64,000 nucleotides of DNA from an uncultured Oscillospiraceae bacterium (GCA_900546265.1 URCA01000015.1:1542-65541); one strand, 5' to 3'. Shown: positions 26,256-64,000, numbered from the stretch's first letter. Notes: a model not told the origin generated them from the letters alone. A program made the numbers and translations.

Positions 26256-26316
26256 TGGCTCCCCCTGTTGGACTCGAACCAACGACATTTCGGTTAACAG
26301 CCGAACGCTCTACCAA
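26256..26316 (-). tRNA. 5'-truncated tRNA-Asn(GTT): D-loop through CCA is present, 5' acceptor strand and D-stem are missing
   Basis: The minus strand reads TTGGTAGAGCGTTCGGCTGTTAACCGAAATGTCGTTGGTTCGAGTCCAACAGGGGGAGCCA. It has anticodon stem-loop TTCGG-CTGTTAA-CCGAA, a T-arm and CCA. The sequence 5' of TTGGTA (gtttacgt) cannot form the TCCCCCT acceptor strand or the GCTC D-stem. Confidence 0.75.
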
Positions 26317-26423
26317 ACGTAAACAAAAACTACGGAAAGTCACGCGGCAAAAAAGTGCCACAACAATGTGAACTTCTGAAGTAGTTTTCTCCCTCATGCG
26401 CTTGTGCCATGAAACGCGGTACG

Positions 26424-27700
26424 TCAGCTGGCCGCTGCTCCGGCGGCCTCGTCTATGAATTGCTGGTAATTGATATTGAATACGATATCCAGTTCATAAC
26501 CCCTGGAAACTCTGACCTCCCGCAGCAGCTGACAGGCGATCATCTTCTTCTGCTCAACAGTGGCGCTCTCAAATTCCTCCGCCCAGCTCCGAAATTGGCT
26601 GTAATAGAAATCCAGATCTTTCATCGCGCTCTCTTTGTCGCGAAGAACCTTATCAATTTCCAGAAGCCGTCGTTCATCCTGCTGGATTTCTTTCTTGGCA
26701 TTTTCAATGGCCAAGGAAAGCATCTCCGGCGTGAACGCGCTCTCCCCCATCAACGATTTGGCAATCTCCCCGGACAATTCTACCAGCCGCCGTTTCTTCT
26801 TCTCCAGGGAAACGGCAACCCTTTTCTGCTGCTCATTTGCGGAGGTTATATCTCGCTTGTATCTTCGTTCCAGGGCTTTGTCCCTTGGAGTGACACGGAT
26901 TCTCGCCAGATAACCGCGCAGGATTTCCATGACTGCGTCGTCGACGGTGGCGGCTATATATGCCGCTTGACCGTCGCATTCTCCGCGTTTCTGCGCCTTG
27001 TTGCAGCAGATATACCGCTGCTTGCGGACGCGGTATTCCGAACCGTCGACGCGGGTATACCTGTCCACATAGCTGGTAGCCACCATTCTGGAACCACAGT
27101 GGGCACAGTACAGATTGCCGGACAACAGCGTCTTGCCTTTGGTCGTGCGAGCAATTTGCTGTTTCTCTTTTTCCGTGTTGGCCCGCTGATCGAGGATGTA
27201 TTGCGCTTGAAAGAAAAGTGGTTCTTCAATAATTTGGATGCGTTCTATATGGGGAGATTCGACGTCACCGGCGACAAAATAGCCGCAATACATCCGGTTG
27301 CGCAAAATTCGGTTTATGGTGTTGCATTGAAACTGGCTGCCGTTGTGAGTCTTGATTCCCAATCCATTGAGATAGTCAGCCATGCGGTAGGAGCCGAAAC
27401 CCTCCCGGACTGTTTTTTCAAAGTACCGGCGAGGGCATCCGACACCAGCCGCCCTCGCCAAACCGATCTGTTTTTGTCGTGCACCTATTCGCCAGCCGTT
27501 CAGAGGTTGGTTGACCCCAGGTGCAGGAATCATACGAACCGCTGCCGATTAGCAGCGTCACGGGAATTTCACCCCTCCCAGGATCTCTGCGAGCCGCCCC
27601 CATTGCTTGAATCTATGGCTGGACGGGAGTATCATTGTCCCTCTTGCTTTCATCGCCCCCAGGGAATCACCCTGCTGTATGGACTATAAGATAGAATCGC
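26424..27700 (-). pseudogene. Large serine recombinase, degraded: recombinase + zinc-ribbon + coiled-coil part is intact, catalytic N-terminal domain is lost to in-frame stops
   Basis: ORF 26424..27533 contains YRMADYLNGLGIKTHNGSQFQCNTINRILRNRMYCGY, the Cys cluster CAHCG...CCNKAQKRGECDG, and a long coiled coil. In the same frame upstream I read ...IQQGDSLGAMKARGTMILPSSHRFKQWGRLAEILGGVKFP*RC*. This faintly resembles the QKGDTL...GINF part of resolvase domains. No S-x-x-Q catalytic motif was found. Confidence 0.65.
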
Positions 27701-27889
27701 TTAGAAAAGAAACAGCGGATCCGGAATCATCATCAAGTGCATTCCTATTCGCTTGTTTTTTTCGTCATGGCGCATCCGTCCAGCTGGCTGGCCGTTCGTC
27801 GCGGCCACAAGAGTTAACGTATTCGTATGACGGAATATTCTGTTATCAAAGAGCTTGTCCATCGCTACGAGGCGGGCATAAAATTCAGT

Positions 27890-27931
27890 AAAGAATAACC
27901 CCCTCACTCTCTTAGCCGTTGAGCGAGGGGG
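27890..27931 (-). terminator. Rho-independent terminator after the sigma-like gene
   Basis: 11-bp stem with one mismatch (CCCCCTCGCTC...GAGAGTGAGGGGG on the minus strand), followed by TTATTCTTTACTGAATTTTAT. Confidence 0.55.
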
Positions 27932-27954: not shown

Positions 27955-28395
27955 CTAGGAGTTTTTTAATTTTTCTAATACTCTAACCTTTTGATCATGC
28001 ATTGTCATGCGAGGAACACCTATTTCTGAGGCCCATTGTCTTTCGGTTTTCTGTTCGAAGTACAGAGCCTGAATAAGCTCGCGTTCCTGCACATCCAGTT
28101 GAGATAAAGCCTGATGCAAAGCATCGCACATAATCGCAAAACAGGCTTCGTCCTCAACATGAACAGACTTGTCGGAAAACTGTTCGCCATTATCATCCAT
28201 GAGCCTGTCCAGCGAATCCTCTCGGGCTGGAACGTATAAAACACTCTCGTTTTTCGCATCCACTCTGATCTTCCTATATTTTAATTCTTTCGCAAAATAC
28301 CGTGCCTTTCTCGCTGTCTTATGATATAGTTCGCACACTTCATCCGATACTGAAATTTGTTTGCCATGAATTAGGATATACTTTTGGACATCCAC
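27955..28395 (-). CDS. Small sigma-70 region-4 / HTH protein of the kind found next to recombinases in Tn916-family and clostridial ICEs
   Basis: 146 aa. GTG start with GGAGGT 8 nt upstream. The C-terminus is LDVQERELIQALYFEQKTERQWASEIGVPRMTMHDQKVRVLEKLK, a region-4 HTH. Confidence 0.65.
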   Translation of the reverse strand: MDVQKYILIHGKQISVSDEVCELYHKTARKARYFAKELKYRKIRVDAKNESVLYVPAREDSLDRLMDDNGEQFSDKSVHVEDEACFAIMCDALHQALSQLDVQERELIQALYFEQKTERQWASEIGVPRMTMHDQKVRVLEKLKNS

Positions 28396-28983: not shown

Positions 28984-30327
28984 CTAAAACCCCGCTACCG
29001 TTTGCAGAAGCACTTGGGCATAAACTCTCTGCATATAGTCGTTGGGATGGTTAGTATTGTTGCTCGTTATATCCTGAAACCGCTTGGTTTGCAGAAGATG
29101 CTGAAATACCGACTGCACATCCGCGTGCACCACCGCTTTTCCCTGATCCCGGAATTCCGCGGCAATGCGTTCTAGCACGGACTTGAAAGATGGCTGATAG
29201 CGGCAAATCGGCGCTCCGTCTCCCCAATTTGTGCGAATCTCCTGATTTGGCAGCATGGAGGACACCAGCACGATTTCCGTATCGGACCTGGCAGCTAGGA
29301 TCTGTTTCACAATCGCTTCAATGTTGTCGCTGAAATCCTTAGGCTCAATGCCAGTTCCGTCGTTCATGCCGAAAGCCACAAGGACGAGATCCGGTTTATA
29401 GGCCAGTAGAGACTGAAAATTAACAATCCCGTCCTCCTCAAAAAGCGGCCAACGAGTCGTCTTTCCGGCGATAGAAAAATTCCGAAGTTCAATTTTCGCC
29501 TTCTTGTATCGGTTCTGCAAACCAGTTTTGAACAGTTCAACATAGGGCGGCATATGGGGCGCTATATCCACATTCTCATACCCAGAGGCTGTCCAACCCT
29601 GCGTAATGCTGTCCCCCAGACAGGCAATCTTCAGAGTACCGGCCTTATCAGTATCGTTTAGAATACCATTTGTTCTTTTAAGGTCGGCGCTTTGATTTGC
29701 GGGAACACCGCCGTTCCACCTTGCACTATGCCGATAGGTTACGCGCACCTGCCAGCGGGTCATACCCAAGGATCGGGTTTCACCTTCCTTGATAGCCTCC
29801 GTGTAAAGCTGTGCGCCGGTCCCATAGATTTCCGGCATATTGGCCGGATTCGAGGGATCGTAAACGGGGAGATAAAACGCCTCGTGTGCGATGGCGGGGA
29901 TCGCGCCGTCCGCTGCGACCTGCAGCTTTCCGTCTTTCGTCAGGGAGTAATCCCTCCCCTCTTCATACCGGATATCCAGCCCGTAACTGTATACGGACAC
30001 AATTTGTTTAGCAGGGTACAGCAGCGAAATGGGCGCAATGCTTCCGTCTTTTTCTTGCAGAATAAACACGGTTTCACTGCGCGCGATGCCACCGTCGTCC
30101 CAAACCGGCACAATATAATCTGCCGGTCCGAATTTCGCCGCGTCGTACTGACTCAAATCCTCCGATGTTCCATCCGGCCAGTCGGGATTGCCGGCCGGCA
30201 CCGTGTCTTCTTTTTGCTCTGGCACGGAGGCGTCAGCTGCACCGCTCACTTTTTTTTCGCCGGCGCAACCCGCACAGACTCCCAGGAAAAGCAACGTGCA
30301 CATAAGGATGGAAAGCCCTCTCTTCAT
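28984..30327 (-). CDS. Lipoprotein with a C-terminal SGNH/GDSL esterase domain (probable glycan deacetylase)
   Basis: Lipobox LGVCAGC-AGE. SGNH blocks are KIACLGDSITQGW, VLVAFGMNDG and NHPNDY. The N-terminal ~200 aa are unassigned. Confidence 0.75.
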   Translation of the reverse strand: MKRGLSILMCTLLFLGVCAGCAGEKKVSGAADASVPEQKEDTVPAGNPDWPDGTSEDLSQYDAAKFGPADYIVPVWDDGGIARSETVFILQEKDGSIAPISLLYPAKQIVSVYSYGLDIRYEEGRDYSLTKDGKLQVAADGAIPAIAHEAFYLPVYDPSNPANMPEIYGTGAQLYTEAIKEGETRSLGMTRWQVRVTYRHSARWNGGVPANQSADLKRTNGILNDTDKAGTLKIACLGDSITQGWTASGYENVDIAPHMPPYVELFKTGLQNRYKKAKIELRNFSIAGKTTRWPLFEEDGIVNFQSLLAYKPDLVLVAFGMNDGTGIEPKDFSDNIEAIVKQILAARSDTEIVLVSSMLPNQEIRTNWGDGAPICRYQPSFKSVLERIAAEFRDQGKAVVHADVQSVFQHLLQTKRFQDITSNNTNHPNDYMQRVYAQVLLQTVAGF

Positions 30328-32421: not shown

Positions 32422-32979
32422 TCACGCAAAGGTAACGGTGATATCCACATGGGTCAAGTCGTTGTCGCTGACGTATCCGGCGTTCAGGACGAAATAGAGA
32501 AAATCTCCTTTTTTGAGCTGTACGGAGAGCTTCTCTTCTGCCGCACTCTCCTCTCCGTTGCCCGTCAGGGACATTTCCGTCAGGGCTTTGCCTGTGTCCC
32601 TGCCATAAACGCTGAAGAGCACACCATCGTCGTCTGTCCGTTGAATCTGCATGAGGTTAACCGTGCAGTGGACAGACGCTTTGCCGCTTTTCGGTGATTC
32701 AAAGCGCAGAATAATATCCTCATTCTGATGCGGCTTCCATTCCGCGCCTACCACAGAGGTAACCGTCGAATTGTAACAACCAGAGTATGCGTTGTATGTC
32801 ATGAAAGTCGGCTGAAAGTTCACTGTGCCAAATAGATAACTCCACCCCATGTGCCCCTGTTGCGCCGCATAGTCGGTCAGGTTGTTAAAAGTTTGAACCG
32901 ATTCTCCGCAACCGCCCGCCGCCAGTATCAGCAGTACACAGAGCAGCGATGCCATCATAGCCGCGCATTTTCTTCTCAT
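32422..32979 (-). CDS. Small lipoprotein, apparently a single copy of the B-type module of the upstream 825-aa protein
   Basis: 185 aa. Lipobox LAAGGC-GES. GWSYLFG...KKGDFLYFVLNAG resembles GWFYAYG...KKGDTVMFTLGTG. ATGA overlap with the upstream gene. Confidence 0.5.
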   Translation of the reverse strand: MRRKCAAMMASLLCVLLILAAGGCGESVQTFNNLTDYAAQQGHMGWSYLFGTVNFQPTFMTYNAYSGCYNSTVTSVVGAEWKPHQNEDIILRFESPKSGKASVHCTVNLMQIQRTDDDGVLFSVYGRDTGKALTEMSLTGNGEESAAEEKLSVQLKKGDFLYFVLNAGYVSDNDLTHVDITVTFA

Positions 32980-35453
32980 GTATGCTCCCTCTTTCTCCTA
33001 CGCAGGATGAGGATACCGGTAACACCACCGGCTGCAGCGCATACCGCGGCGACCGGAAGTGCTATGTACAGGATAGGTACGGTATTGTCTCGAACCGATA
33101 CCGCCATCTCGGTTGTTGACGGATCTTTCTGTATAAGCTCGGCCTCATTCTTGGCCAAACTCAAATATTTTGTTAAACCCTCATTGACCGACCGGTTCTC
33201 TACGCTCAGTTCGTAAATATTGGTGATATAGCTGACACCGTCGCCCGCTTCGCTGTATCTCTCCCCGGCACTCAAGGCAAAGATAATTGTGTCGCCTTTC
33301 TTCACCTTCAGTCGTTGTTCTGGAATCCTGTAATTCTTTTTACCCATGTAATCGCAGGTTTCTCGCCACAGGGATTGACCGTTGAAATACAGGGCCGCGA
33401 CTGCGCCGTCGCCCTCCGTGGCGGTACGGGATACATAGCCGTCCACTGCGATTTCCCCGTCGATATCCGACACCCAGATTTTTAAGTTTTCAAACCTGCC
33501 ATAAGGATGTACGGTGGTCCTGCCGATGAATTGATACGGGTAGTGACTGGCCCACTGGTTTTCTCCATACACATTGTTCCAGGTCATCAGAAGATACTTT
33601 TCCGGATGGCCATATGCATAAAACCAACCGTATTTACCCTGTTCGTTTGAATAACTGCGAATCGGCGCCTTGGAGCAGCCAAGATCCTCCGATAGTTTTG
33701 TATCCGCTGCCCCCGCCGTCCCGGTAAAATCCGCCTGAAAGAGAACAATATTACCGTCGCTGTCATTGCAGCCATTGTTGTTAACAGAAAGGGCAACTAA
33801 ATCACCCGCATGAACCTCTATGCCGCTGAGACTGAATTCCACAGGCTTGTCGTTAGTCAACTCCACATCCACGAGCGATGCATCCAGCACCTGTGCGTCC
33901 GTATAACCGTCGCCGGTAAACGACCGCTTTTCCAGTGAAAACCGAATACCATCCACATCCCGGCTGTCCGCCGCTGTAGCGTCTGTTTTCAACTGTACGC
34001 TCCCGCTCAGATTGACCACACCGTCCGCCGGCGCACGCCAGGCCTTGATGGTATCACCATAGTTGCCGGGATGCAGATTGACGGCCCCTCGGGAACCGAT
34101 CTCCACCTGGGCAAACGTGTCCGTGTCCGTATACCGCCACAGGGTATCGGAATTCTTAAACATTTGAAAATACCGTCCGGAGAAATCGCCATATAGATAA
34201 AACCATTCTCGGGACGCGGGTTCTTCCGTCTCCGGAACCTCGCCGTTCACTTTTAAGAGCTCGGCCTCATTATCCGCTAAATGCAGATACCCTTTCAAAT
34301 CGATGCCGGATCCACGGTTGTCCACGCGCACTTCGTAAATATTGGTGATGAAATCCGTACTGTCGCCCGACTCATTAAACTGCGCTCCCGTTCCTAGGGT
34401 AAACATAACCGTATCGCCTTTTTTTACAGAAAGTCGTTGTTCCGGAATTCGATAGTACTTCCGGCCCATGTAGTCACAGTTCTCTTTCCAGAGGGGTTGA
34501 CCATTGAAATAGATGCCCGCCACCGAACCGTCACCCACGGCGGAATCCCTCGCCACATAACCGTCCACCGCGATTTCTCCATCAAAATCGGATACCCATA
34601 TTTTCAAGTTATCAAACTTTCCATAAGGGTGCATTTTGGTTCGCCCGATGAACTGGAAAGGATTTTTTGAGGTCCATTGATGGTCTCCATAAACATGACC
34701 CCAGTCCATCAGCACATACTTTTCCAGCAATCCATAGGCATAAAACCAGCCGTCTTTCCCCTGCTGGTCGGAAAAACTGGGGATCGGCGCTGCCGAACAC
34801 CCCAAATCCTCCGGCAATTCTGACTCCACAGCCCCGGGCGCTTTGGTAAAGCCGACTTGAAAGGTAACAGAGTTTCCATCGCTGTCGTTGCAGCCGTTGT
34901 TATTCACAGAGAGCGCGATCAAATCGCCGGCGCACACGTCGATGTCGTCAACGGTAAAGTCCACAGGCGTTGGATCGTTCAGGAGTACGTCGTCCCAGGT
35001 CTGATCGACCGCCTGCGCAGGCCCGTAGTTTTTCCCATCAAACGTCCGCTTCAGCAGGGAAAACCGGATGCCGTTGATACTGTCGCTGCCCGCCGCGCGG
35101 GGATCCGACAGCAGTTTCACACTGCCCTTCAGGCTGACCGTTCCATCGGCCGGTGCGCGCCATGCCTTTATAGTGTTTCCGAAATTGCCCGGATGCAAAT
35201 TGACGATATTCTGCTGCCCGATTTCAACCTGAGCAAACGTATCGGCGTCAGTATACCGCCACAGCGTTTCGGATTTCGGGCTCATTTTGAAATACCGGCC
35301 GGAAAAATCCCCGTACAGGTAATACCAATCGCCGTCTGCGCGGATCCCCTCCGCCAAACCGGTGACGCTCGTCCCCCAGCTTCCCATGAGCCATGTGAAG
35401 CTCAGGGCGGCAGTAAGGGCCATCTGCAGAATCCGGCTTCCCTTTCGTTTCAT
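32976..35453 (-). CDS. Membrane-anchored extracellular protein with an internal A-B-A-B duplication, function unknown
   Basis: 825 aa. AAGGAGAG RBS. N-terminal signal/anchor. Two ~374-aa copies begin DWYYLYGDFSGRYFKM... and EWFYLYGDFSGRYFQM.... The C-terminal TM is PILYIALPVAAVCAAAGGVTGILILRRRKR. Confidence 0.55.
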   Translation of the reverse strand: MKRKGSRILQMALTAALSFTWLMGSWGTSVTGLAEGIRADGDWYYLYGDFSGRYFKMSPKSETLWRYTDADTFAQVEIGQQNIVNLHPGNFGNTIKAWRAPADGTVSLKGSVKLLSDPRAAGSDSINGIRFSLLKRTFDGKNYGPAQAVDQTWDDVLLNDPTPVDFTVDDIDVCAGDLIALSVNNNGCNDSDGNSVTFQVGFTKAPGAVESELPEDLGCSAAPIPSFSDQQGKDGWFYAYGLLEKYVLMDWGHVYGDHQWTSKNPFQFIGRTKMHPYGKFDNLKIWVSDFDGEIAVDGYVARDSAVGDGSVAGIYFNGQPLWKENCDYMGRKYYRIPEQRLSVKKGDTVMFTLGTGAQFNESGDSTDFITNIYEVRVDNRGSGIDLKGYLHLADNEAELLKVNGEVPETEEPASREWFYLYGDFSGRYFQMFKNSDTLWRYTDTDTFAQVEIGSRGAVNLHPGNYGDTIKAWRAPADGVVNLSGSVQLKTDATAADSRDVDGIRFSLEKRSFTGDGYTDAQVLDASLVDVELTNDKPVEFSLSGIEVHAGDLVALSVNNNGCNDSDGNIVLFQADFTGTAGAADTKLSEDLGCSKAPIRSYSNEQGKYGWFYAYGHPEKYLLMTWNNVYGENQWASHYPYQFIGRTTVHPYGRFENLKIWVSDIDGEIAVDGYVSRTATEGDGAVAALYFNGQSLWRETCDYMGKKNYRIPEQRLKVKKGDTIIFALSAGERYSEAGDGVSYITNIYELSVENRSVNEGLTKYLSLAKNEAELIQKDPSTTEMAVSVRDNTVPILYIALPVAAVCAAAGGVTGILILRRRKREHT
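33099..35330 (-). repeat. Tandem in-frame duplication (2 x ~1.12 kb) inside 32976-35453
   Basis: Copy 1 is about aa 42-415 and copy 2 about aa 416-785. They are collinear by eye along their whole length. Confidence 0.7.
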
Positions 35454-35497: not shown

Positions 35498-37264
35498 TCA
35501 GTCAAAGACCAAACGGCCGTCACTGCCGATCTCGGGTGCCTTGACGAGCTGCCCGTTTTTGAGGGCCGCGTTGTAAGCGGTTGTGATGGCATCCCCTTTG
35601 TATGTCGTGTTCATGGTCTTCACATAACTACTCCAGGCACTGTTGAACGGCTCACTATACTGCTTGAACGTGTCCCACCAGGTATCGGAGGTCTTGGTGA
35701 AATCCGGCTTGGCCGAGGCATAGCTGGTATTGCGTTCCATCAGCGTAAACTCTGTCTGCATTTTGTCGCAAAGGCCCTCAAAATATTCCGTATAGGTTTT
35801 CTCAGTTAACATATAGTAATCGGGATAGCGGTTATACGTTTTGGCCTTTTCCATCGCCTCAATAATTTTGCCGCTGTTGGTCTGCATTTCGTTGTAATAG
35901 TTGGAGGTGATATTGGTGAATAGGCGCAGCGCGCTGAATGTGTCTTTCCCGTCAATCGTCCAGTTCACAGGATGCTCCCCTTCCTGTGCGCCCATCAGGC
36001 TTTCCCGGACAGTTTTCTCGTTATTTTCGCTCTTTTTATAGTGGATCCCCTCTACTCCATAGGTCAATAAATCCACAGCCTCGTCGCTGAGCAGCCAATC
36101 CATCAGTTTCAATGCATCGCCGCGTTTTTTCTCCGACATATCCGCACTCAGGCAAACCGACGTCCAAAAGTTCGGATGACCTTGAATACCGTACTCCCCG
36201 TCAATCCCCTTGGGCGGCGCAAACATGGCAATCTTCTCCGCTGCTTCTTCATAAGACCAGTTTTTTTGGGTAACAAAATAGGAGAGCACCAGGTTGAGCA
36301 TGGCCTGATTTTCGATGATACCCACTTGTCCATTGCCGAAAGCCGCCAGCTTGTCTGAGGCATCATTGGTTGCCCAGCTGGGATCCATAAATCCGTTTGT
36401 CAGTAGATTGTTGACAAAATTAACAATGTACTTATTGCCGTCACTGGTGCCGCTGAATTCATATTTGCCGTCCTTATTGTTATCCTCCATGATGCGGTAT
36501 CCGCCGCCCGCGACATACAGCCAGTTGTCGGAATACATATCCACCGTTGAGGTATAGCCATAGGTATCGTCTTTCCCATTGCCGTCCGGGTCATACAACG
36601 TGAAGGCGCGGCAGAGACGGTAAAACTCCATCAGGTCCTGCGGCACGGTGAATTTGTATGTCTCATATATTGCGTCCGTCATAGAGCTCTCGTTACTGAT
36701 GACGCCATCTTTCACCAGGATTGACGCCAGCTTTTTATTCAGATTTTCGATCCAGTCCATACGAATAAACATGGTGTGTTCCTGCGTCCAGACCGTGGGA
36801 ATCATATACATTTTACCGTTCATGAAATCAATGTTCTTGCTTAAGAACGAATATTTCTGAAGCTGCCGGTAGATGTTTGGATATTCCTTTTCCGAAACGT
36901 AGTCCGATATCGGGAGCAGCGCCTCGGCCTTAATCATCTTATTGAACAGCACCGGGGTTTCCGCCGTCCGGGAGATGAACATATCAGGGAGATTACCTGT
37001 ATTAAAATACTGCTGCAGCTTGGTGTCCGCCTGACCGCCGCCTGCAATCAGGCAGGTAAAATCCACGCCGCAAAGCTCCATGTATTTCTTATATAAATCC
37101 GATTTTCTCTTAATAGCGGTGTTGACGCCGCTGAGATCTGAATAGAACAGCGTCAGCGCTCCATCCTCGCCGGCCTCTTTCGAGCTGTTGCAGCCAGTCA
37201 GCGCCGTAAGGCACATGCCCAGCGCCAGTATGATGGCGGCGCCTTTTCTGAATAATTTTTTCAT
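35498..37264 (-). CDS. ABC transporter solute-binding lipoprotein (large LplA-like sugar-binding protein)
   Basis: 588 aa. Lipobox LTALTGC-NSS. It is followed by two permease genes. Confidence 0.8.
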   Translation of the reverse strand: MKKLFRKGAAIILALGMCLTALTGCNSSKEAGEDGALTLFYSDLSGVNTAIKRKSDLYKKYMELCGVDFTCLIAGGGQADTKLQQYFNTGNLPDMFISRTAETPVLFNKMIKAEALLPISDYVSEKEYPNIYRQLQKYSFLSKNIDFMNGKMYMIPTVWTQEHTMFIRMDWIENLNKKLASILVKDGVISNESSMTDAIYETYKFTVPQDLMEFYRLCRAFTLYDPDGNGKDDTYGYTSTVDMYSDNWLYVAGGGYRIMEDNNKDGKYEFSGTSDGNKYIVNFVNNLLTNGFMDPSWATNDASDKLAAFGNGQVGIIENQAMLNLVLSYFVTQKNWSYEEAAEKIAMFAPPKGIDGEYGIQGHPNFWTSVCLSADMSEKKRGDALKLMDWLLSDEAVDLLTYGVEGIHYKKSENNEKTVRESLMGAQEGEHPVNWTIDGKDTFSALRLFTNITSNYYNEMQTNSGKIIEAMEKAKTYNRYPDYYMLTEKTYTEYFEGLCDKMQTEFTLMERNTSYASAKPDFTKTSDTWWDTFKQYSEPFNSAWSSYVKTMNTTYKGDAITTAYNAALKNGQLVKAPEIGSDGRLVFD

Positions 37265-47026: not shown

Positions 47027-47080
47027 ATTATACATAGCGGAAAACTTCCCGTCATGTAATTGCAAATAGAGGTTATGAGA

Positions 47081-51815: not shown

Positions 51816-52076
51816 TCATTTCCTCAGGCAATACTGCGAGCTGCTCCTGGCTCCACTGGCCCGGTTTCGCGGGATACGTTCCACGAAGCCAGCCTGCTCC
51901 AGTTCGGCCAGCGCCCGGTAGACCGTCCGGGTGGAAATATGCAAATCAGCCGCGATGGTAGATACGGATGGATAGCACCGACCGTCTATGGAATTCCGCC
52001 GCTCCCGCAGATACATATACACCGCCACGGCCCGATGAGGCAGATCGTACTCGTAAAGCAGTCGGTTGTATGCCAT
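51816..52076 (-). CDS. Small winged-HTH protein typical of ICE/plasmid modules
   Basis: 86 aa. AGGAGGA RBS. CYPSVSTIAADLHISTRTVYRALAELEQAGFVERI. Confidence 0.6.
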   Translation of the reverse strand: MAYNRLLYEYDLPHRAVAVYMYLRERRNSIDGRCYPSVSTIAADLHISTRTVYRALAELEQAGFVERIPRNRASGARSSSQYCLRK

Positions 52077-53837: not shown

Positions 53838-54968
53838 CTATTTCTGATATTCCTGACGCTGTTCAAACGCCTGATCCTCCAGCTGCTCCATTCGGAGCCT
53901 AGCATACAGCTTGGCCGACGCGTCGAATAAAGTTGTCAGTTTGTCGGCGGTCACCCGGTAATCCTCCGGTGAGCGGGCAGCGTGCTCCCCTAAGTCCGTC
54001 ATAACTACCCGTACCGCCCGCTCAAACGCCGTCTGCCGGGCGGTCACCGGGCTTTTGTCCCGGTAGGAGCGGTAGCCCGCCCGGTACTCCCGGCGGAACC
54101 CATCGAAGCCGTCCACACAGTCGGCGCTTACCCCCAACCGGGCGCGGATCAGGCCGACCCCCGTTGCAGCGGTTTCCGCCGTCCGCCGGACGGACTCCAA
54201 ATCACCGGTCTGGCTGTAGTCCTTGTAAAATGTCCAGATCCGCGCTCGTGTCCGTTCCAAGTTGGAACAGGGACGGCACTGCATGGCATCAAGGCTTTCC
54301 ATAAACAAATCCCTGTACACATGGGGAACCGCTGGCTTGGGCGTGCCTCCATGAAGGGCGATAAGATCCTCGTTCCAGTCCTTGCAGCGACTGCGGCCCT
54401 GCCAAATATCCATATACCCGTAATCCCACAGGATGTCCGTTAACCGCTCGGTGGCGTTTAACCCGGCCACGTCGTTGTCCATGCACAGAATCACAGTATG
54501 CAGATGGGGATATTCCTGAAGCCGGCCCAGCATGGCGTGTTCCGCCACGCCGCACAGGGCTACATAGCTATGTTCCTGCCAGTTGTCTGGGTAGAGCGTC
54601 AGATAACTCAACAGGTCAATAGGCGCCTCGAACACAAACAGCCAGCTGCTCGTCCCAATGCGGCAGAAGCTATAGGCTGGGTTGGATCCGTCCGTATTCC
54701 CTTTGTAGCCGGCACCGTAGCTGTTCAGGCTCCGTTTGTGGGCATGCCGCGGGGTTCCTTCCCTGTCCTTCCCCACAAACACCGCGTTGTGGATCTCCCT
54801 TTTCGGTTCACCAAGAAACTCCCGGCTCTCGTACAGTGTGCGCTCATGCGCAAAGTGTGTGATGACCGCCGGGGCGATATGCCGCTGCTTGATGAGGTAG
54901 GCAAACACCCGGCGCATATTGCCGTTGGCCGCCGGCAGATGAAACGCCGGCGACAGTCCATTCTCCAC
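53838..54968 (-). CDS. DUF3991/Toprim-domain protein (primase-like ICE protein)
   Basis: LFVFEAPIDLLSY (Toprim Glu) and ILCMDNDVAG (DxD). 376 aa. Confidence 0.65.
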   Translation of the reverse strand: MENGLSPAFHLPAANGNMRRVFAYLIKQRHIAPAVITHFAHERTLYESREFLGEPKREIHNAVFVGKDREGTPRHAHKRSLNSYGAGYKGNTDGSNPAYSFCRIGTSSWLFVFEAPIDLLSYLTLYPDNWQEHSYVALCGVAEHAMLGRLQEYPHLHTVILCMDNDVAGLNATERLTDILWDYGYMDIWQGRSRCKDWNEDLIALHGGTPKPAVPHVYRDLFMESLDAMQCRPCSNLERTRARIWTFYKDYSQTGDLESVRRTAETAATGVGLIRARLGVSADCVDGFDGFRREYRAGYRSYRDKSPVTARQTAFERAVRVVMTDLGEHAARSPEDYRVTADKLTTLFDASAKLYARLRMEQLEDQAFEQRQEYQK

Positions 54969-55010: not shown

Positions 55011-57605
55011 CTATAACCTCAATGACCGTTTCTGTCCTTCCCTATATCCAAGGGCCGCCCTTTTTTCCGCCATTTCCGCCAGCAGCTTGGAATCCGTGTG
55101 AATATCCATCAGCCGCAGGCTTTCCGTCTGACCATCCAACAGCCGCGCCACACCCTGAAGCAACCCCAGCACCGCCGTTTGTGGAGAAACAGACGGTTTC
55201 TTGGTATGCTCCAATAACCGGCTGGCGTATTGGTTTCCCTGTGCAGCGGAACGATGCAGCCAATACAGCGCCCGTTCTCTATCCTCCGGCACATCTATTC
55301 CAAACAGGTACAGCTTGCCAAGCGTGTACTCTGCATACTGGTTTCCCTGTGCCGCTGATCGTTCGAGATAGAATAGGGCCTTGCCCGTGTCTTTGAGCAC
55401 ATCCTCTCCCTTGAAGAACAGCTTGCCGAGCGCGTACTCCGCATACTGGTTTCCCTTTGCCGCCGACCGTTCCAGATAGGTAGTGGCTCTTGCTGTGTCT
55501 TTTGGCACACCTTCGCCCTTTAGATACAATTTGCCGAGGGAGTATTCCGCAAAATCGTGACCCGCGTCCGCCGCTTTTGCAAACCAGAAAGTCGCCTGCT
55601 GCGGATTATAGTCCACATACTCCTTTTTGAGGTAAAGTGTTCCCAAGCCATAGTAGGCATTGACGTTCTTCAGCACGGCGGACTTTCCCAGATAGGTTTT
55701 CGCCAGTTCAAAATTGACAGATGTTCCGATGCCGGACAGGTTCATCCGCCCTAGCCGGTAAGCCAAGTTTTCGTCGCCACGTTCCTGTTCCAAGGCCACA
55801 AAGCGGGTATAAGCGGCAGAATACCATCGCTTCGACTTTGCCGCATCGCGTTCTGTCCCTCTGCCATCTCTATACATACCGCCCAGTTCATACATGGCGT
55901 AGGCGTTGGGCTGTTTTTCATGTTCCGCCGCCATCGAATACAAGGAGAAAGCCTGTGCCTCGTCCTTGTCTACCCCCTGACCGCGATGGTAAAGACCGCC
56001 CAAAGCATACGCCGCAAAAGGATTGTCCTGCTTCACCGCCTTGGCATACCAGCCAGCGGCTTGAGTGTAATCCTGCTCCGTACCATAGCCGAGGGCATGC
56101 ATCTTACCGATGCGGTACTGAATATACCCCTTTTGTTCCGCCTCCATGAAACCGGAAAGCGCCAGCTGGAACCATTGTTGCGCTTCATCTGTGTCTTTCT
56201 CACAGCCATTTCCGTCCAGCCGCATTTTGCCGACGTCATAAATCGCCAGAATATTTCCCCTGCGTGCTTCCGTCAGCATGAGGCCATAAGCCTCCCCTGC
56301 CCTATCGTCACCGCCGTTGTACCAGAGTTTCCGGGCCGCCTTGTATGCATCCGACCACTTTATGGCCGGCTCGTCCGCTTCCACAAGCGGTTCACCCGCA
56401 CAGTCTGACGGAGGCAAATCGGCGTCATCCTGCTCATCTGGCCAGCCGGAATCTTCGTCCCAACCAGATTCGGGCTCTTCCATCGGTGAGTGAGAGGACA
56501 AGGAAAGCGCCGCACGTATGACCATGTTCTGAACGGGACGGAATTCCTTTCGGCTGGACAGAGGCTGAGATTCTCGTTCTGTATCGGAATAGGTTTCCAG
56601 AATCGCTCTACGCTGCTCCTGCCAAATCTTGTACAAGGCCGCGATCTGATCGTTCTCCACCAACCGGTCGACAGCCGTGTTCACCAACCGCTTTACGTCC
56701 GGCGGCAGATATTGATAAATCCGTTTTCCCGGTACATCCTGCAGCCGGTCGCGGAGTTGTGTCAGCATCGTCTCCAGCTGCTCATCTGCATAGTCACCCG
56801 CATCGATACGGTAGGTCAGATCTTTTAGCAGTCTCCCGGCCTTCTCCCGGAGGGCGTCGCGGGCATCCGTCTGCTGATCGTAAAGCTGCTTCAGCGTGTC
56901 CTGAAAAATAACCTTTGCAAAACCACCGCGCATACGTTCAATGCCGGTATTGGTCAAATACCCCTCAGCAGGATCAGAGGAATAGACAAGGAGATGAACA
57001 TGAGGGTGTGAATCCTCATTGTGGTAAGCCGCCACCCACCGCAGGTTTGCCGGATCGATTTTGTGACCCTCAGCCAGCAGGGACAGGCTGTTTCGCAGCA
57101 ATGTCTTATAAGCCGCCTGATTGTCGTAGCCCAGCCTGGCGGCATCCTCGCGCCGCAGACTCAGCACATGCGACCAAACAATACCCTGGTGGCCAGCCAC
57201 TTCGTTCACGATTTTATTCAGAGAACGCGACTTATCTGTCTGGGAAAACAAGCCATGCGCCGCCTGTTTTTCCACGCCGGGCCGCATCCCCATATACCGG
57301 ACAAACTCTCCCCTGCCGACGATTTGATCGGCATACTGTTCCATGACGGTGCTGATGAATTTCGAGGCGCTTTCTCGGTTTGGCTGCTGCTGATATTCCG
57401 CGTACTCCGGTAATGTGGCGACATCCGGCAGTTCACCGCGAAGCCGAGTAATGAGCGCCTGCTGCTTCTCTGTTGCCGGCAGTTCCGGCCACCCCGCCGG
57501 ACACAATTCCACGCCCGGCCGCGTCCCCATGTATTCAACGAGATTTGCCAGCTGGGCAATGGGTGCTTGACTCAGATATCGGCTTGTAAAGATAATCCGT
57601 GGCAT
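55011..57605 (-). CDS. Relaxase (MobL/MOBQ-like N-terminal domain) fused to a long Sel1/TPR-like repeat array
   Basis: N-terminus MPRIIFTSRYL...; histidine motif AAYHNEDSHPHVHLLVYS; acidic linker (EEPESGWDEDSGWPDEQDDAD). About ten repeats of the type AxYxLGxxYxxGxGVxxDxxxAxxWxxxAA follow. Confidence 0.7.
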   Translation of the reverse strand: MPRIIFTSRYLSQAPIAQLANLVEYMGTRPGVELCPAGWPELPATEKQQALITRLRGELPDVATLPEYAEYQQQPNRESASKFISTVMEQYADQIVGRGEFVRYMGMRPGVEKQAAHGLFSQTDKSRSLNKIVNEVAGHQGIVWSHVLSLRREDAARLGYDNQAAYKTLLRNSLSLLAEGHKIDPANLRWVAAYHNEDSHPHVHLLVYSSDPAEGYLTNTGIERMRGGFAKVIFQDTLKQLYDQQTDARDALREKAGRLLKDLTYRIDAGDYADEQLETMLTQLRDRLQDVPGKRIYQYLPPDVKRLVNTAVDRLVENDQIAALYKIWQEQRRAILETYSDTERESQPLSSRKEFRPVQNMVIRAALSLSSHSPMEEPESGWDEDSGWPDEQDDADLPPSDCAGEPLVEADEPAIKWSDAYKAARKLWYNGGDDRAGEAYGLMLTEARRGNILAIYDVGKMRLDGNGCEKDTDEAQQWFQLALSGFMEAEQKGYIQYRIGKMHALGYGTEQDYTQAAGWYAKAVKQDNPFAAYALGGLYHRGQGVDKDEAQAFSLYSMAAEHEKQPNAYAMYELGGMYRDGRGTERDAAKSKRWYSAAYTRFVALEQERGDENLAYRLGRMNLSGIGTSVNFELAKTYLGKSAVLKNVNAYYGLGTLYLKKEYVDYNPQQATFWFAKAADAGHDFAEYSLGKLYLKGEGVPKDTARATTYLERSAAKGNQYAEYALGKLFFKGEDVLKDTGKALFYLERSAAQGNQYAEYTLGKLYLFGIDVPEDRERALYWLHRSAAQGNQYASRLLEHTKKPSVSPQTAVLGLLQGVARLLDGQTESLRLMDIHTDSKLLAEMAEKRAALGYREGQKRSLRL

Positions 57606-57770: not shown

Positions 57771-57798
57771 TGAAAAAAGCAGAGCCCTAAAGCTCTGC
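57771..57798 (-). terminator. Rho-independent terminator overlapping the PIN gene stop
   Basis: GCAGAGC-tttagg-GCTCTGC on the minus strand, followed by TTTTTTCA. Confidence 0.65.
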
Positions 57799-58185
57799 TC
57801 CTTCGTATTCAAGAAACTGCGCCACACTCATGCATTTGGGGTGCTCCATGTCGAGACATAAAAAATCCTTATCCCCAGTTAGAATCATATCCACGTCTGA
57901 AACGATCGCGGCGTTCAGGATCGGCTGGTCTTTGGCATCCCGTATCAGCTTTTCCGCGTGGCTTACCGCCGGTATGAGCTCATAGGATAACTCTGCCAGC
58001 AGCACCTCCGCATCCGGCAAACACTGCGGCGCCTTGCGCTTCAAGACCTCTCGCAATTCCATAAGGTTTCTGTCGCACAAAACCATGTCGTGGTGCTGCG
58101 TAATATACAGCAGCGCCTTGGCCACTTTGGAGTTCGGGAAAAGGACGGTGGAAATCAGGATATTGGTATCCACTAAAATCCGCAT
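57787..58185 (-). CDS. PIN-domain (VapC-like) toxin
   Basis: 132 aa. MRILVDTNILIS (first acidic residue) and ILTGDKDF. It lies immediately downstream of the AbrB-type gene. Confidence 0.75.
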   Translation of the reverse strand: MRILVDTNILISTVLFPNSKVAKALLYITQHHDMVLCDRNLMELREVLKRKAPQCLPDAEVLLAELSYELIPAVSHAEKLIRDAKDQPILNAAIVSDVDMILTGDKDFLCLDMEHPKCMSVAQFLEYEGAEL

Positions 58186-58187
58186 AT

Positions 58188-58445
58188 TTACTTGTCCTTT
58201 CCGTACCGTACTTCATCGACAAGCGCCTGCACGTCGTCATCGGTATACACACCGATCTCCTCCGCGACGCCTTCAAAGGCTTTTTGTGCTTTATAAATCG
58301 CTTGGGCGGAAGCATTGTTGATGACAACCTCCCCATTCGGTTTCTGGAAAAACAGGATTTTGTCTCCGGATTTCAAGCCGAGGAGCCGGCGGATTTCAAC
58401 CGGGATGGTAATCTGCCCATTGGCGGATATTTTGGCTAAGTTCAT
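58188..58445 (-). CDS. AbrB/MazE/SpoVT-type antitoxin
   Basis: Trimmed to ATG 58445 (AAAGGGTG RBS). MNLAKISANGQITIPVEIRRLLGLKSGDKILF is a swapped-hairpin AbrB fold signature. 85 aa. Confidence 0.75.
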   Translation of the reverse strand: MNLAKISANGQITIPVEIRRLLGLKSGDKILFFQKPNGEVVINNASAQAIYKAQKAFEGVAEEIGVYTDDDVQALVDEVRYGKDK

Positions 58446-58494
58446 ACTATCACCCTTTCGATGGTATATATAGGTAGCGTCAGCATTCTTGAAA

Positions 58495-58521
58495 TCTAAA
58501 GAATACAAAGAATTCTTTAGA
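58495..58521. promoter_or_regulatory. Inverted repeat upstream of the antitoxin gene, a candidate autoregulatory operator
   Basis: TCTAAAGAAT-acaaaga-ATTCTTTAGA, about 50-75 nt upstream of ATG 58445. Confidence 0.4.
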
Positions 58522-58585: not shown

Positions 58586-58993
58586 TCATCCGCGCTGATA
58601 CTTGACTGCGTCCTCCAGCCGCATGATACCGTTTGTACGGCGTACCTCATCTACGCACTTGATGTGCAAACGGCGGAGGGTATCGTCGTCCAGTTCCTGC
58701 ATCACCGCCAACAGATTGGAGGTCTTAGCCTGTTCCACGGCCAACTTGAAAATATTACGAGCCAGCCGTTCTTCGCAGGCCGTCACCGCCGACTGAACGA
58801 TGCTGGTCAGAATGGGAGCCAGAGCCGTCAAGCCATCTTCGCTGGCGAGGTAGCTGAGATAGAACTTCACAGCCTTGATAATAAACTCGTTTTTTGACTG
58901 ACAGTTGTCCGATGCGCAAACGGCATCGAGCCGATCATAAAACGATACCGGAGCATTCAGCGTAAACCTCCGTTTTTTCTCTTTCAAGAGCAT
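58586..58993 (-). CDS. Ribbon-helix-helix (CopG/MobC-like) DNA-binding protein
   Basis: The start is set at ATG 58993 (AAGGAAAGG RBS). KRRFTLNAPVSFYDRLDAVCASDNCQSKNEFIIKAVKFYL fits a beta-strand plus two helices. Confidence 0.6.
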   Translation of the reverse strand: MLLKEKKRRFTLNAPVSFYDRLDAVCASDNCQSKNEFIIKAVKFYLSYLASEDGLTALAPILTSIVQSAVTACEERLARNIFKLAVEQAKTSNLLAVMQELDDDTLRRLHIKCVDEVRRTNGIMRLEDAVKYQRG

Positions 58994-59028
58994 GACACCA
59001 ACCTTTCCTTGATTTGCAGCCATTTTTC

Positions 59029-61307: not shown

Positions 61308-61311
61308 GCCG

Positions 61312-63769
61312 TCACCTCCCGCCGGCTGAGCCGAACAGCCGCGTCTTGTACTCCGGGAAATGCACCTGTAGGTGATACCGCTCATTACCACACTTATACA
61401 GGCAGCAGCCCCGCGCCGGATATTTGATGAGGTCATACTCGCTCTGTTCCAGCTGCAGGGAGTCCATATAGAACCGAGCGTCGGTGTTGCCGGCATTGAA
61501 CAGGAAGACATGCGTGGGAATGGCGAACAGAGGCTTGGTATATTCCCGCACACCCTCGAGATCGAAGTCCTCCAAATTCTGCGACGCGAGCAGCACGGCG
61601 CTGTCCCTTTTGCGCACCCTCTTCATAAAGTTGCGGATATATTCGATGGCGGTCAGGTTGGAGAGGAACAGGTACAGCTCATCCACCGACGCGACGGCGT
61701 TTCCTTTGGTCAGCAGCTCGTTGCTCATGTAGGACAGCACATTGAACAGCATCGCATCCTTCACACACTTGTTGGCTTCCAACAAGCCTTTAACCCCGAA
61801 GCAGATGAACATGGAATCCGTGATATTGGTGTGGCCGTTGAAGAAGCGGCTGTCGCTGCCCACGCACAGGGAGTGGAGGCCCAGCGCCAATTCCTGCAGG
61901 GTGCTTTCAGTGTACAGGTTCTTTTTCTTTTCGTCGTATTGCTTGTATTCTTGCTCAACAAGCCGGTACAGATCCGAAAGGATAGGGAAATTCCCAGAAC
62001 CGCTCCCTTCCCGCACACCGAAATCCCCATACAACCGGAGCAGCAGGATTTCCAGCGTGTCCAGATGGCGCTCCTCCCAGCCGGGTTTATACGCCTTGAA
62101 GAAATCCCGCAGGAAGCTGATATGCTGCGCCAGCCGCGTGGCGGCGGTGAACGCCGCCGGTGCCGGCTGTCCGTCCTCATCCTCAATTCCGTCCGCCCAC
62201 AGCTTGGGTTCCAGCACGTTGATGATGTGCTTCCCTTCCATAAGATCCAGATAGCAGCCGCCCAGGTTCTCCGTCAGCTCCTTATATTCCCCTTCGGGGT
62301 CAAGGGCCAGAGCACGTTTGCCTATTTGCCGAATAATCGTCAACAATCCTTTGAGCAGATACGATTTGCCCTGCCCGCTGTTGCCAAGTATGAGGAAACC
62401 ATTATTGGTTTTATCATCCTCATGTTTAAATGGGTCAAGCAGGATATGGCTTCCGCACGTTTCGCGGCCAATGGGGAAACCATGCGCATCGGTCTTGCCG
62501 GAATAATTCATTGGGAACAGGTTTGCCGCCGAGCCAGCGGGTAGCACACGCTCATACTGAATCCCCAGCGCGTTATATCCCACCGGCCCGGCAGATAAAA
62601 AGCCCTCCTTCTGTCGGAGCAGCAGACGGTCGACTTGGATTTTACACCGAGCCAGTTCGGTCTGCACCTCTGTCTGCAGTTCACGCAGCGCCTCTAGGCT
62701 CCGGGCCGCCATCTCCATATACACAGCCGTGTGTACCAGCGGCTCCTTGTCCCGGTGCATACGGGCAATGAGGGACGCCACGTCCTCCAGGTTGCTCTGC
62801 GCCACCACACTTTGCTTGAGATCATCGGTGCCGGCCACCATCCGATTCTTTTTCGTCGCGCCGGCCAATATTTTGTTTTCCTCCGCCGGCGTTATATGCC
62901 GGATATAGAGGTGCAGGGTGACGCCATCCCGTTCCCCGAGCCCTCGCAGAAGTGCCTGTTCCTTGGTCGATGTCGGATAATCGCGTACCGCCCACACACA
63001 GCGGTACGTATCGCCGCAGATGATGTGGTCGGTGTAGAACCGAATAGCAGCTGGCGTGATGAGGTCGGCAAACGACTTGACGCGGACCTCCGTTGACAAA
63101 ACAGCCAGCCTCTGTTCCGCCTCTATAGCCGGATGAATCCCTCCTTCGACATTGCCCCATGAGCCGGGAAGCGGCTGCATCGAGGCGGGCAGTCTTTTTT
63201 TCTTAAACACCGGCCACCCACCTTTCGCCGTCGATACTGTCAAGCGATCCAACCGGCTGCTGCGTGTAGTATACAGCCAGCAGTCGGCGGAGATCATCCG
63301 GCGCGGCGGCTTCGGCCTCAAAGCCCTGTTCCTTGAGTACCTTTCCCAACCTTTGCGCGTCGTTTTGTTCTCCGCCCGCCTGCTGACGCAGGACGATATA
63401 GAATTCCCGCGCCGTGGCCATGTCCCGTTGGATATCATCCAAATACTGAATGTCCTGCTCACACAATCTTTGGACAGCCGGGTTGTCCTCCTGTTGAATC
63501 CGTTCTAAAAAATATGTTTTGTTGTCCTCAAAGCTCTCAGAAGTGTTCAAACACACAATCTCCACGCTTGGAACAGCGGCCAGTACATTGGCCAGTGCCG
63601 CCTCCTTGGCTTCCATCACGGATGCCGGCAGCACTGCCACGTTTACTGGGCGGATCCGGTAAAACAGCAGTTCCGTATTCTGCCCGACCAGCACACGGTT
63701 GCCCGACACCTCTTGGATGCCGATCAGATCCTGTGCCGACCGTCTTGCTTTAGTAATTTTGGGCTTCAT
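61312..63769 (-). pseudogene. VirB4-like conjugation ATPase, apparently split by a 1-nt frameshift into 188-aa and 632-aa ORFs
   Basis: The N-terminal ORF (ATG 63769, GGAGGTGA RBS) reads MKPKITKARRSAQDLIGIQEVSGNRVLV..., which has the look of a VirB4 N-domain. The second ORF has Walker A LILGNSGQGKSYLL and Walker B-like VASVDELYLF. Deleting one T in GTTTAAG at about 63203-63207 fuses them (…WVAGVKKKRLPASMQ…) into about 820 aa. Confidence 0.55.
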
Positions 63770-63771
63770 AT

Positions 63772-64000
63772 TCACCTCCAGAAAAATAACTGCTGACCGA
63801 TTAGAAAAAAGCAAACAGAGTATCGGATGTAATCCAGGATCGTCATCTCCTCCATACGGATGGTGACGAACGCGAACACAGCCGATACCACAAAAGGAAC
63901 CAGCGTCCCCAGCTGCGCGAACGCCAGCGCCGACAGCAGAAAGCCAGCGCCGATGAACACGATATGGCGTAGTTCCCACAGCCACAGCGTCGGACGGGCT
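63772..64000 (-). CDS. PrgI-family (VirB3-like) small membrane protein, with the N-terminus off the window
   Basis: The frame is open to the window edge (…LWLWELRHIVFIGAGFLLSALAFAQLGTLVPFVVSAVFAFVTIRMEEMTILDYIRYSVCFFL…). The pattern is two TM segments followed by G/R-M-x-x-x-x-(Y/F). It lies directly upstream of the VirB4-like gene. Confidence 0.55.
   Translation of the reverse strand, partial: ARPTLWLWELRHIVFIGAGFLLSALAFAQLGTLVPFVVSAVFAFVTIRMEEMTILDYIRYSVCFFLIGQQLFFWR

Follow-up and report, generated by a model that had tools for sequence, protein, structure and literature searches.

Conjugative elements with carbohydrate cargo are already known, and a trade in such genes among gut Firmicutes is not without precedent. 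Integrative and conjugative elements (ICEs) of Bacteroides bear polysaccharide utilization loci (PULs), and the sugar-use conjugative transposons of lactic acid bacteria reportedly include Tn5276 (nisin-sucrose) and Tn6098 (alpha-galactoside). Within Faecalibacterium, whose ICEs and integrative and mobilisable elements (IMEs) are further examples, the dominant ICE type reported is the Tn1549 family. Its defining features are a MOBP7 relaxase (PF03432), MobC and topoisomerase III, and it is reported to carry ABC/PTS modules for the import and degradation of carbohydrates (PMC12084326). The element described here lies in a 64,000-nt stretch of DNA from an uncultured Oscillospiraceae bacterium (URCA01000015.1:1542-65541), the whole of which is referred to as the window. 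Positions 26.3-64.0 kb of the window very probably represent the right-hand ~38 kb, or about two thirds, of a single ICE of ~54 kb from a human-gut Anaeromassilibacillus, with a glycan-utilization locus of ~23 kb as its cargo. The host was assigned to Anaeromassilibacillus because a cluster look-up of the solute-binding protein (SBP) of the cargo (WP_457790683.1) and of the 369-aa recombinase remnant (WP_457790675.1) matched a 3.51-Mb contig of Anaeromassilibacillus sp. SJQ-5; the other occurrences fetched were mostly contigs of gut or unlabelled metagenome assemblies.

Along the minus strand, the initial annotation had read a conjugation module, a block of carbohydrate genes, a small sigma-like protein, a large serine recombinase (LSR) and a split tRNA gene, and this order was confirmed by an open reading frame (ORF) listing and by Pfam and NCBIfam scans of the window proteins. 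A generic set of ICE genes is present in one block, consisting of a MobP3/MobL relaxase, a VirD4-type coupling protein and VirB4, with VirB6/TrbL located just past the window. The GC content drops from ~58-60% over 1-25 kb to ~50-54% from 26 kb on; by part, the host flanks have 58-62%, the conjugation backbone 53-54% and the cargo 51.4%.

Empty insertion sites were found by exact-protein look-up of the chromosomal GntR-type regulator encoded next to the 5S rRNA gene, which returned ten distinct places. Six of the ten (~15 contigs read) are empty and conspecific, with an identical flanking GntR regulator, and show the order SpoIIR, promoter, tRNA-Lys(CTT), tRNA-Glu(CTC), intact tRNA-Asn(GTT), 5S, terminator and GntR. 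None of the six places carries ICE genes or the carbohydrate block. An intact tRNA-Asn followed by 5S is the arrangement that the initial annotation had expected of an empty site, and it is therefore borne out in conspecific contigs. A scan of a genome collection with the same regulator gave distant matches only.

In the window, the tRNA-Asn(GTT) gene displaced by the insertion is represented by its chromosomal 3' 59 nt (26256-26314, minus strand; intact gene at L039 9235-9310). The tRNA-Asn called by ARAGORN at 26256-26328 is held together through wobble pairs only, and the Rfam match is restricted to model positions 10-63 (32 bits). Compared with the empty site, the first 17 nt of the gene are replaced by element DNA ending GTTTTTGTTTACGTTT and the chromosomal sequence resumes at GGTAGAGC (window 26314-26307), so the earlier call of a split tRNA gene was correct. 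The right boundary of the element, attR (26307-26330, minus strand), was defined against the empty site, the attL of a sibling copy (L049), and the attR of siblings and of a second insertion site described below (site a). It is made up of a P arm, GTTTTTGTTTACG (26318-26330), a TTT spacer and the core GGTAGAGC (26307-26314), and this core is common to attB, attL and attR. Outside the element, the chromosomal 5S rRNA gene of the tRNA-Lys/Glu/Asn/5S operon (26089-26205, minus strand; Rfam 91.5 bits) is now cut off from the operon promoter by the insertion.

The left junction was obtained from a metagenome scan with SpoIIR, which led to L049, a contig with a 100% identical SpoIIR. Here tRNA-Lys and tRNA-Glu are followed by 25 nt from the start of tRNA-Asn, the last of them being GGTAGAGC, and then by AATCGTACACAAAAACGATGG; the element side directly after these 25 nt reads AATCGTACACAAAAAC. 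A 5' fragment of tRNA-Asn had been predicted to stand beside the last ICE gene, with the letters TCCCCCT and GCTC; it was found in this sibling copy. By comparison with the empty site, the missing 5' part actually reads TCCTCCT-TA-GCTC, which is close to the prediction but differs in the exact letters. For the copy in Anaeromassilibacillus sp. SJQ-5, the expected attL signature is TCCTCCTTAGCTCAGT(C/T)GGTAGAGC joined to AATCGT(A/C)CACAAAAAC. The attP rebuilt from the element sides of attR and attL reads GTTTTTGTTTACG-TTT-GGTAGAGC-AAT-CGTACACAAAAAC, with two inverted arms of 13 nt, GTTTTTGT(G/T)TACG and CGTACACAAAAAC, that are palindromic about the core and match at 12/13 positions, or at 13/13 when the sibling P arm is used. 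This anatomy is as expected for an LSR, whose catalysis at the site is predicted. A third, independent junction, the attL of a third insertion site in L156 that came from a Dam-methylase homologue search, has the same core after an rRNA-type context (tRNA-Lys, 5S, tRNA-Asn), a P' arm with one mismatch and a sibling Dam methylase of 78% identity. A search of IMG/VR with the attL core pattern returned no match. In a further conspecific contig (L048 10870-20672), a foreign AT-rich block follows tRNA-Lys of the same operon; it contains its own tRNA-Glu, a 5S, a junction with a tRNA-Asn 5' fragment and a second tRNA-Asn, and continues with a Schlafen-like helicase and a type II-A CRISPR-Cas9 system (Cas9 of 1328 aa, Csn2).

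The region to the left of the window was read through exact look-ups of the 188-aa protein encoded near the window's end and through a homologue walk in sibling copies. In order beyond 64 kb, it contains an 85-aa gene, GGACT, an amidoligase, TrbL/VirB6, DUF3852 and a large surface protein of ~980 aa (DUF8194/8195), then a Tad-like pilus set (DUF4320, TadB/C-like, T2SSE ATPase, RcpC and prepilin peptidase), and leftmost DUF6133, two SpoVG, YodL and a Dam methylase, at which the leftward walk with TadB homologues ended. The Dam methylase is followed by element-borne 5S and tRNA-Asn genes (5S* and tRNA-Asn*) and attL. Only the start of this type IV secretion (T4SS)/Tad region lies in the window (63772-64000, minus strand), and in loci L019-L029 and L049 it extends ~17 kb further. 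Chaining of coordinates through copies 95-96% identical to one another places attL at about the window equivalent of 80.7 kb, which corresponds to an element of ~54 kb.

In L049 a second, full-length tRNA-Asn that differs in sequence (65 bits) lies ~85 nt inside attL, followed by a complete 5S* rRNA gene (91.5 bits), a terminator and the Dam methylase gene leading into the ICE backbone. 5S* has nearly the same sequence as the host 5S, whereas the anticodon stem of tRNA-Asn* is different. Inside the attL of L156 the element likewise carries a tRNA-Asn and a 5S (modules at L049 3787-4008 and L156 611-806), and because this sibling's Dam methylase is only 78% identical, the tRNA-Asn*/5S* pair is a conserved part of the ICE lineage. 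In a 72% relative with another left flank (L150), found by Dam-methylase homologue search, both the tRNA and the 5S are missing. The pair would rebuild or replace the end of the operon that is cut by integration. On a contig of low coverage (L160 1-500), tRNA-Lys and a single 5S are joined straight to the Dam methylase gene, which most likely arose when the assembly merged two 5S copies, one chromosomal and one element-borne, of the kind present in L156.

Three siblings (L038, L042 and L046; 3/10 of the places from the GntR look-up) occupy the same attB, and the tRNA-Lys/Glu/Asn/5S operon is a hotspot for several element types. Each sibling encodes an intact 527-aa recombinase with Resolvase, Recombinase and Zn-ribbon domains, and upstream of it a module of a 149-aa sigma protein, a pemK RNA, the PemK toxin and a 61-63-aa ORF; in L046 an additional HipA-like gene is located after the small ORF, ahead of the recombinase. 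By blastn, homology between window and siblings runs from the tRNA through the 3' part of the recombinase gene at 94-98% identity, resumes through the pemK leader and the sigma gene, and stops at window 28454 (L038), 28757 (L042) and 28593 (L046). The sibling cargo beyond comprises an esterase/S9-like 810-aa protein and an 828-aa protein of no stated family in L038, an AP_endonuc_2 isomerase and a GFO_IDH oxidoreductase in L042, and a GH1 and an MGH1-like glycoside hydrolase (GH) in L046; none of these proteins gave a tblastn match in the window.

More distant relatives were found through an intact VirD4. L136 encodes the relaxase, Toprim, VirD4, two ABC ATPases, sigma, pemK RNA, PemK, a small ORF and the LSR, and contigs with a VirD4 identical to that of L136 carry a tyrosine integrase, an agr-like quorum-sensing set and a radical-SAM/S8 peptidase cluster. 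In L128, VirD4 and HTH_36 are followed by transposase and RHS/YD-repeat genes. Because siblings and distant relatives hold unrelated genes there, the interval from VirD4/HTH_36 to the sigma gene is a genuine variable slot, and copies of the backbone with other cargo, for which the initial annotation had proposed a search, do exist. In the contigs with identical VirD4 (L134-L138; 11981-13087 and equivalents) the slot opens with a tyrosine integrase gene or its remnant, which hints that some cassettes enter it as self-integrating modules.

The recombinase, the coupling protein and VirB4 had all been taken to be broken. For the recombinase this proved accurate. The remnant (26424-27423, within a 369-aa ORF at 26424-27533, minus strand) retains the Pfam Recombinase and Zn-ribbon domains, and no Resolvase catalytic domain was detected in it by Pfam. 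What is left corresponds, at 98% identity, to residues 193-527 of the 527-aa protein of L038, and residues 1-192 are gone. The cause is a 1,301-bp deletion, at which window 27421-27423 joins L038 positions 6841 and 8143 (blastn); it begins 21 nt into pemK, ends at recombinase codon ~195, and takes with it pemK, the small ORF and residues 1-192. With the whole Resolvase domain lost, the element encodes no functional integrase of its own, whereas its siblings encode the intact 527 aa. The deletion is present in every one of the 25 contigs read with this sigma protein, whichever of the two insertion sites they represent. The pemK RNA motif (RF02913; 27558-27638, minus strand; Rfam 72 bits) is the leftover leader of the deleted gene; it lies ~115 nt upstream of PemK in L038, L042 and L046 and ~200 nt upstream in L136, and unlike in these relatives it has no pemK gene behind it in the window. 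PemK in the siblings has no obvious PemI partner, and a 46-63-aa ORF and then the recombinase follow downstream; the RNA may act as a leader or in an antitoxin-like way.

For the coupling protein the claim held for the window's sublineage only. The VirD4-type gene (52090-53827, minus strand; Pfam T4SS-DNA_transf/TraG-D_C) is in two pieces through a +1 frameshift, caused by one extra T (T5 to T6) at ~53307 that is shared with L011 and L012, and VirD4 is intact at 578-591 aa in L013, L015 and L016. Since the catalytic domain of the recombinase is deleted and virD4 is frameshifted, this copy of the element is non-autonomous. For VirB4 the claim did not stand. A frameshift was rejected as an explanation, as homologues of the 188-aa protein are mostly stand-alone and the split is kept across copies. 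The 632-aa VirB4-like ATPase (61312-63210, minus strand) aligns to positions 183-745 of 752 of the one-piece CD1110-type NCBIfam VirB4-like model, and the 188-aa protein (63203-63769, minus strand; NCBIfam and stand-alone homologues) is therefore the VirB4 N-terminal domain. The 188 + 632 split is found in all but one copy read at the locus, the other being L028 with 188 + 215 + 610, and VirB4 is 621 aa long in a relative whose VirD4 is 76% identical. When the 188-aa protein was compared with cluster representatives, most of the best 150 matches that aligned over its full length proved to be stand-alone proteins of ~185-205 aa, and only 3 of the best 150 are fused, forming the N-termini of 712-814-aa proteins.

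Look-ups of the sigma protein revealed the same arrangement of cargo, sigma gene and truncated recombinase in two contexts. Site b (L003, L004 and L007-L010) has the 5S/GntR flank of the window, and site a (L001, L002, L005 and L006; an example is GCA_964261755.1, contig CAXVQW010081115.1, around 1.16-1.24 Mb) is flanked by GH172, oxidoreductase and fucose-isomerase genes with no 5S. At site a the sequence after the P arm and core is the 3' half of another tRNA-Asn gene (ATGCGGCTGTTAACCGCAGG...), and the break is therefore at the att core and not downstream of it. The occupied site a of L005 and the empty site b of L041 are located on one 1.56-Mb contig; the host of both contexts is thus the same species. 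Between the site-a copies L001/L002 and the site-b copies, 9-27 single-nucleotide polymorphisms (SNPs) were counted over 12.1 kb, which falls inside the range of 0-38 found among site-b copies. The suggestion that the element is immobilised is therefore too strong, since a copy with a deleted recombinase occupies two tRNA-Asn genes with almost no divergence.

This distribution could also be read as that of a dead, purely vertical fossil which reached its second location by rearrangement or homologous recombination, a reading we consider rather unlikely. It would account for the loss of the catalytic domain in all 25 contigs and for the fact that no intact recombinase was seen elsewhere in the element, and the 94-98% identical recombinase 3' region and the backbone shared with the siblings could be used for cassette exchange. 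However, the site-a junction falls exactly at the core GGTAGAGC, as predicted by site-specific recombination, although homologous recombination with a sibling already at site a would produce the same junction. Furthermore, the very low divergence between sites implies a recent spread across strains, and VirD4 is intact in several copies, both of which speak against such a fossil.

The cargo (28984-51571, both strands; Pfam and PDB sequence search) is a ~23-kb locus resembling a Gram-positive PUL (gpPUL). Starting from the sigma gene, it encodes a GDSL esterase (28984-30327; Pfam), an 825-aa protein of no family (32976-35453, minus strand), the SBP, a lipoprotein of 588 aa (35498-37264), two ABC permeases (37285-39092), an AraC regulator (39097-40008), a predicted lipoprotein of 2231 aa (40030-46725, minus strand), a rhamnosidase-like six-hairpin protein (47060-49363, plus strand; PDB RhaB, E = 2.5e-13) and a GH36 alpha-galactosidase (49379-51571, plus strand; Pfam), and 685-aa and 185-aa proteins of no family also lie within the block. 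The 2231-aa protein was recognized as a lipoprotein by its lipobox, FAAAC, and consists of six tandem repeats of ~335 aa, each with a CarboxypepD_reg-like domain; it has no PDB and no NCBIfam match. The 825-aa protein has an internal duplication, with DNA repeats 1122 nt apart that are 71-89% identical. The 825-, 685- and 185-aa proteins have no match in Pfam or NCBIfam, the first two have none in the PDB sequence search, and a single-sequence AlphaFold model of the 685-aa protein reached a pLDDT of 36. A gpPUL combines one or more glycan-degrading enzymes with a transporter and a regulator, and here carbohydrate-active enzymes, the SBP with two permeases and the AraC regulator are co-located, with no ATPase gene in the locus. 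Judged from these families, the cell would use the locus to capture at its surface a substituted glycan of plant or host origin, de-esterify it and import the oligosaccharides, from which alpha-galactosyl and possibly rhamnosyl residues would be trimmed intracellularly. Variants of the element were also observed, with an extra gene for a 636-aa GtaA-like six-hairpin protein between the rhamnosidase-like and lipoprotein genes (L013 15031-16941 / L146 1758-3668), an IS110 beside the VirB4 region (L014 1-54) or an IS200-type Y1 transposase in the backbone (L019 3381-3671), and with relaxases of 864, 828, 718 and 677 aa owing to the Sel1 array.

The initial annotation had named two observations that would speak against the locus being ICE cargo, namely its occurrence without ICE genes and an att-like junction at its edges. 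Neither was made: HTH_36/VirD4 ICE genes adjoin the locus in 23/23 contigs read with the identical GH36, and no repeats or att-like junctions bracket the cargo, where only gene-internal repeats were found. The same observations bear on the proposal that the glycan block became nested in the ICE by accretion, as an integrative or mobilisable element in its own right. The tyrosine integrase gene or remnant with which the slot opens in the identical-VirD4 relatives (L134-L138, L136) would be in keeping with such an origin. Nevertheless it is improbable, given that 28.9-51.6 kb contains no integrase, relaxase or transposase, that the block has neither direct nor inverted repeats around it, and that it always coincides with this backbone. 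The alternative initially set beside the single-element proposal, in which an ordinary carbohydrate locus of the chromosome lies between two unrelated remnants, a conjugation and a recombinase module, can be dismissed with near certainty: although the neighbouring host chromosome (window 1-25.6 kb) is likewise rich in carbohydrate genes and the cargo is without a mobility gene, conspecific empty sites are without the carbohydrate block and both modules together, an LSR att junction terminates the block, which is found again in a second tRNA-Asn gene with another flank, attL and attR rebuild one palindromic attP, the GC content of the cargo is like that of the ICE and unlike that of the host, and the identical GH36 always adjoins ICE genes. 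Empty sites, junctions, cargo edges free of repeats and att-like junctions, and a variable slot thus uphold the proposal of one ICE with the glycan locus as cargo.

Within the conjugation backbone of this ICE, five small ORFs are located downstream of the VirB4 ATPase gene, ahead of an intact pair of AbrB/MazE-type antitoxin and PIN toxin (57787-58508, minus strand; Pfam) that may assist retention of the element. A ribbon-helix-helix protein listed in the initial annotation was not recovered, as Pfam gives no such domain in the 145-aa ORF at 58586-59023. The MobP3/MobL relaxase (55011-57605, minus strand) has 864 aa with a C-terminal array of 8 Sel1 repeats; it was identified by Pfam MobL and by NCBIfam MobP3, with 321 bits against a cut-off of 150 (further match ids PF18555/NF041499). 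It is followed by a DUF3991-Toprim protein (53838-54968, minus strand; Pfam), VirD4 and an HTH_36 protein (51816-52076, minus strand; Pfam), the final backbone gene ahead of the slot, which also adjoins VirD4 in L128. On the other side of the slot, the small sigma-70 region-4 protein of 146 aa (27955-28395, minus strand; Pfam) opens the conserved right-hand module. The host flank at window 1-25600 is itself a large carbohydrate locus, with a GC content of 58% and clearly unlike the element cargo; it encodes an SBP-like ORF of 944 aa and permeases, as well as paralogous proteins of 812 and 821 aa that match no Pfam family.

In the mechanism proposed for this ICE, the LSR integrates the element into the D-arm of tRNA-Asn(GTT), with crossover within the core GGTAGAGC. 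Integration destroys the tRNA and, at this site, separates the downstream 5S from its promoter. The element brings a replacement tRNA-Asn and 5S with a terminator inside attL, as seen in two siblings and expected here. The accessory slot between HTH_36 and the terminal module (sigma, pemK leader RNA, PemK, small ORF and LSR) holds the glycan locus. As to decay, every copy seen with this cargo descends from an ancestor that suffered the 1,301-bp deletion, and the window's sublineage has the virD4 frameshift as well. Among the most likely routes of the later move to a second tRNA-Asn would be the action in trans of a sibling's 98%-identical recombinase on identical att arms; the other likely route would be homologous exchange with a sibling already resident at the second site.

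Several points weigh against this reading of the window. The left end was seen only in sibling copies (L049, L029), whose backbone is 95-96% identical, and because no attL was found on a contig that also holds the cargo, the ~54-kb size and the tRNA-Asn*/5S* module are probable rather than observed for the copy in the window. Of L038, L042 and L046 only the right-hand ~9 kb was seen, with the conjugation backbone outside this view. Mobilisation in trans is suggested by population structure. The assignment of a substrate is limited by three cargo proteins without a family and by the lack of a PDB match for the 825-, 685- and 2231-aa proteins. Finally, no integrase, transposase or flanking repeat in window 28.9-51.6 kb marks the route by which the cargo entered.

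A broader picture can be drawn tentatively, and may possibly hold, in which sibling ICEs of one gut Clostridia species share one integrase and att system, carry different carbohydrate cassettes in the same slot together with their own tRNA-Asn and 5S, and include a member without integrase and pemK toxin that borrows the integrase of a sibling. If so, glycan genes would be exchanged in a cooperative, 'plug-and-play' manner, and rRNA and tRNA genes would be part of a mobile backbone. The locus offers a sequence-level example of gut Clostridia exchanging whole glycan-utilization loci, with junctions, an empty site, three insertion sites and siblings; such exchange is well documented in Bacteroides and has only recently been catalogued in Oscillospiraceae. 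The integrase-deleted copy at two sites represents a natural experiment on trans-mobilisation between related ICEs, and the rRNA gene on a mobile element bears on how 5S and tRNA copy variation in metagenome bins is read. The compact attP/attB and the near-identical large serine integrases, which target a conserved tRNA-Asn sequence, are candidate integration tools for gut Firmicutes that are hard to engineer.

The element had initially been described as Tn916/Tn5397-style. This is apt for its layout, in which conjugation genes, accessory genes, a small sigma-like regulator (cf. Orf7) and a terminal recombinase follow one another, and an LSR is also found in Tn5397 (TndX). It does not extend to the family, as the relaxase is MobP3/MobL here and MOBT/Rep_trans in Tn916/Tn5397, and the coupling protein is of the VirD4 type and not of the FtsK/TcpA type. 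Further differences from Tn916/Tn5397 are the Tad-like pilus module, the DUF3991-Toprim protein, the two-gene VirB4, the tRNA-Asn D-arm target and a 23-kb carbohydrate cargo in place of tet(M). With the Tn1549 family the element shares a gut Firmicutes host, VirD4, VirB4 (PF12846) and, as is often the case there, insertion in a tRNA gene; it is unlike that family in that PF03432, MobC and topoisomerase III had no match among the window proteins scanned. In PLSDB the relaxase-Toprim region had no DNA match and VirD4 gave remote matches, the closest 60% identical and on an unannotated record, so the element has no named relative there, and literature searches on the backbone type (MobL/DUF3991) and on the pemK motif returned nothing specific. 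Gut metagenomes contain a great many homologues of VirD4 and TadB, so the backbone type is a common one, although apparently without a name.

Tn6098, Tn5276 and the PUL-bearing ICEs of Bacteroides likewise carry a carbohydrate locus as accessory region, including an alpha-galactosidase in Tn6098, but have other backbones, tyrosine integrases, much smaller or SusC/D-type loci and other hosts. The integration system resembles those of phiC31, A118, SPbeta and TnpX/TndX in that the siblings encode an LSR of three domains, the attP is ~45-50 bp long and has a short core between imperfect inverted arms, and integration takes place inside a gene. It differs from them in targeting the 5' part of a tRNA gene and in bringing a whole replacement tRNA-Asn and 5S, rather than relying on a tolerated disruption or a restored 3' end. 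The titles and abstracts of the top-ranked literature records contained no matching precedent for serine-recombinase integration into tRNA-Asn. Three features of the element are unusual in comparison with known systems: serine-recombinase integration in the 5' part of a tRNA gene that is offset by a whole replacement tRNA and 5S, siblings with different glycan-related cassettes that share one att system within one species, and a member with a deleted integrase at two sites.

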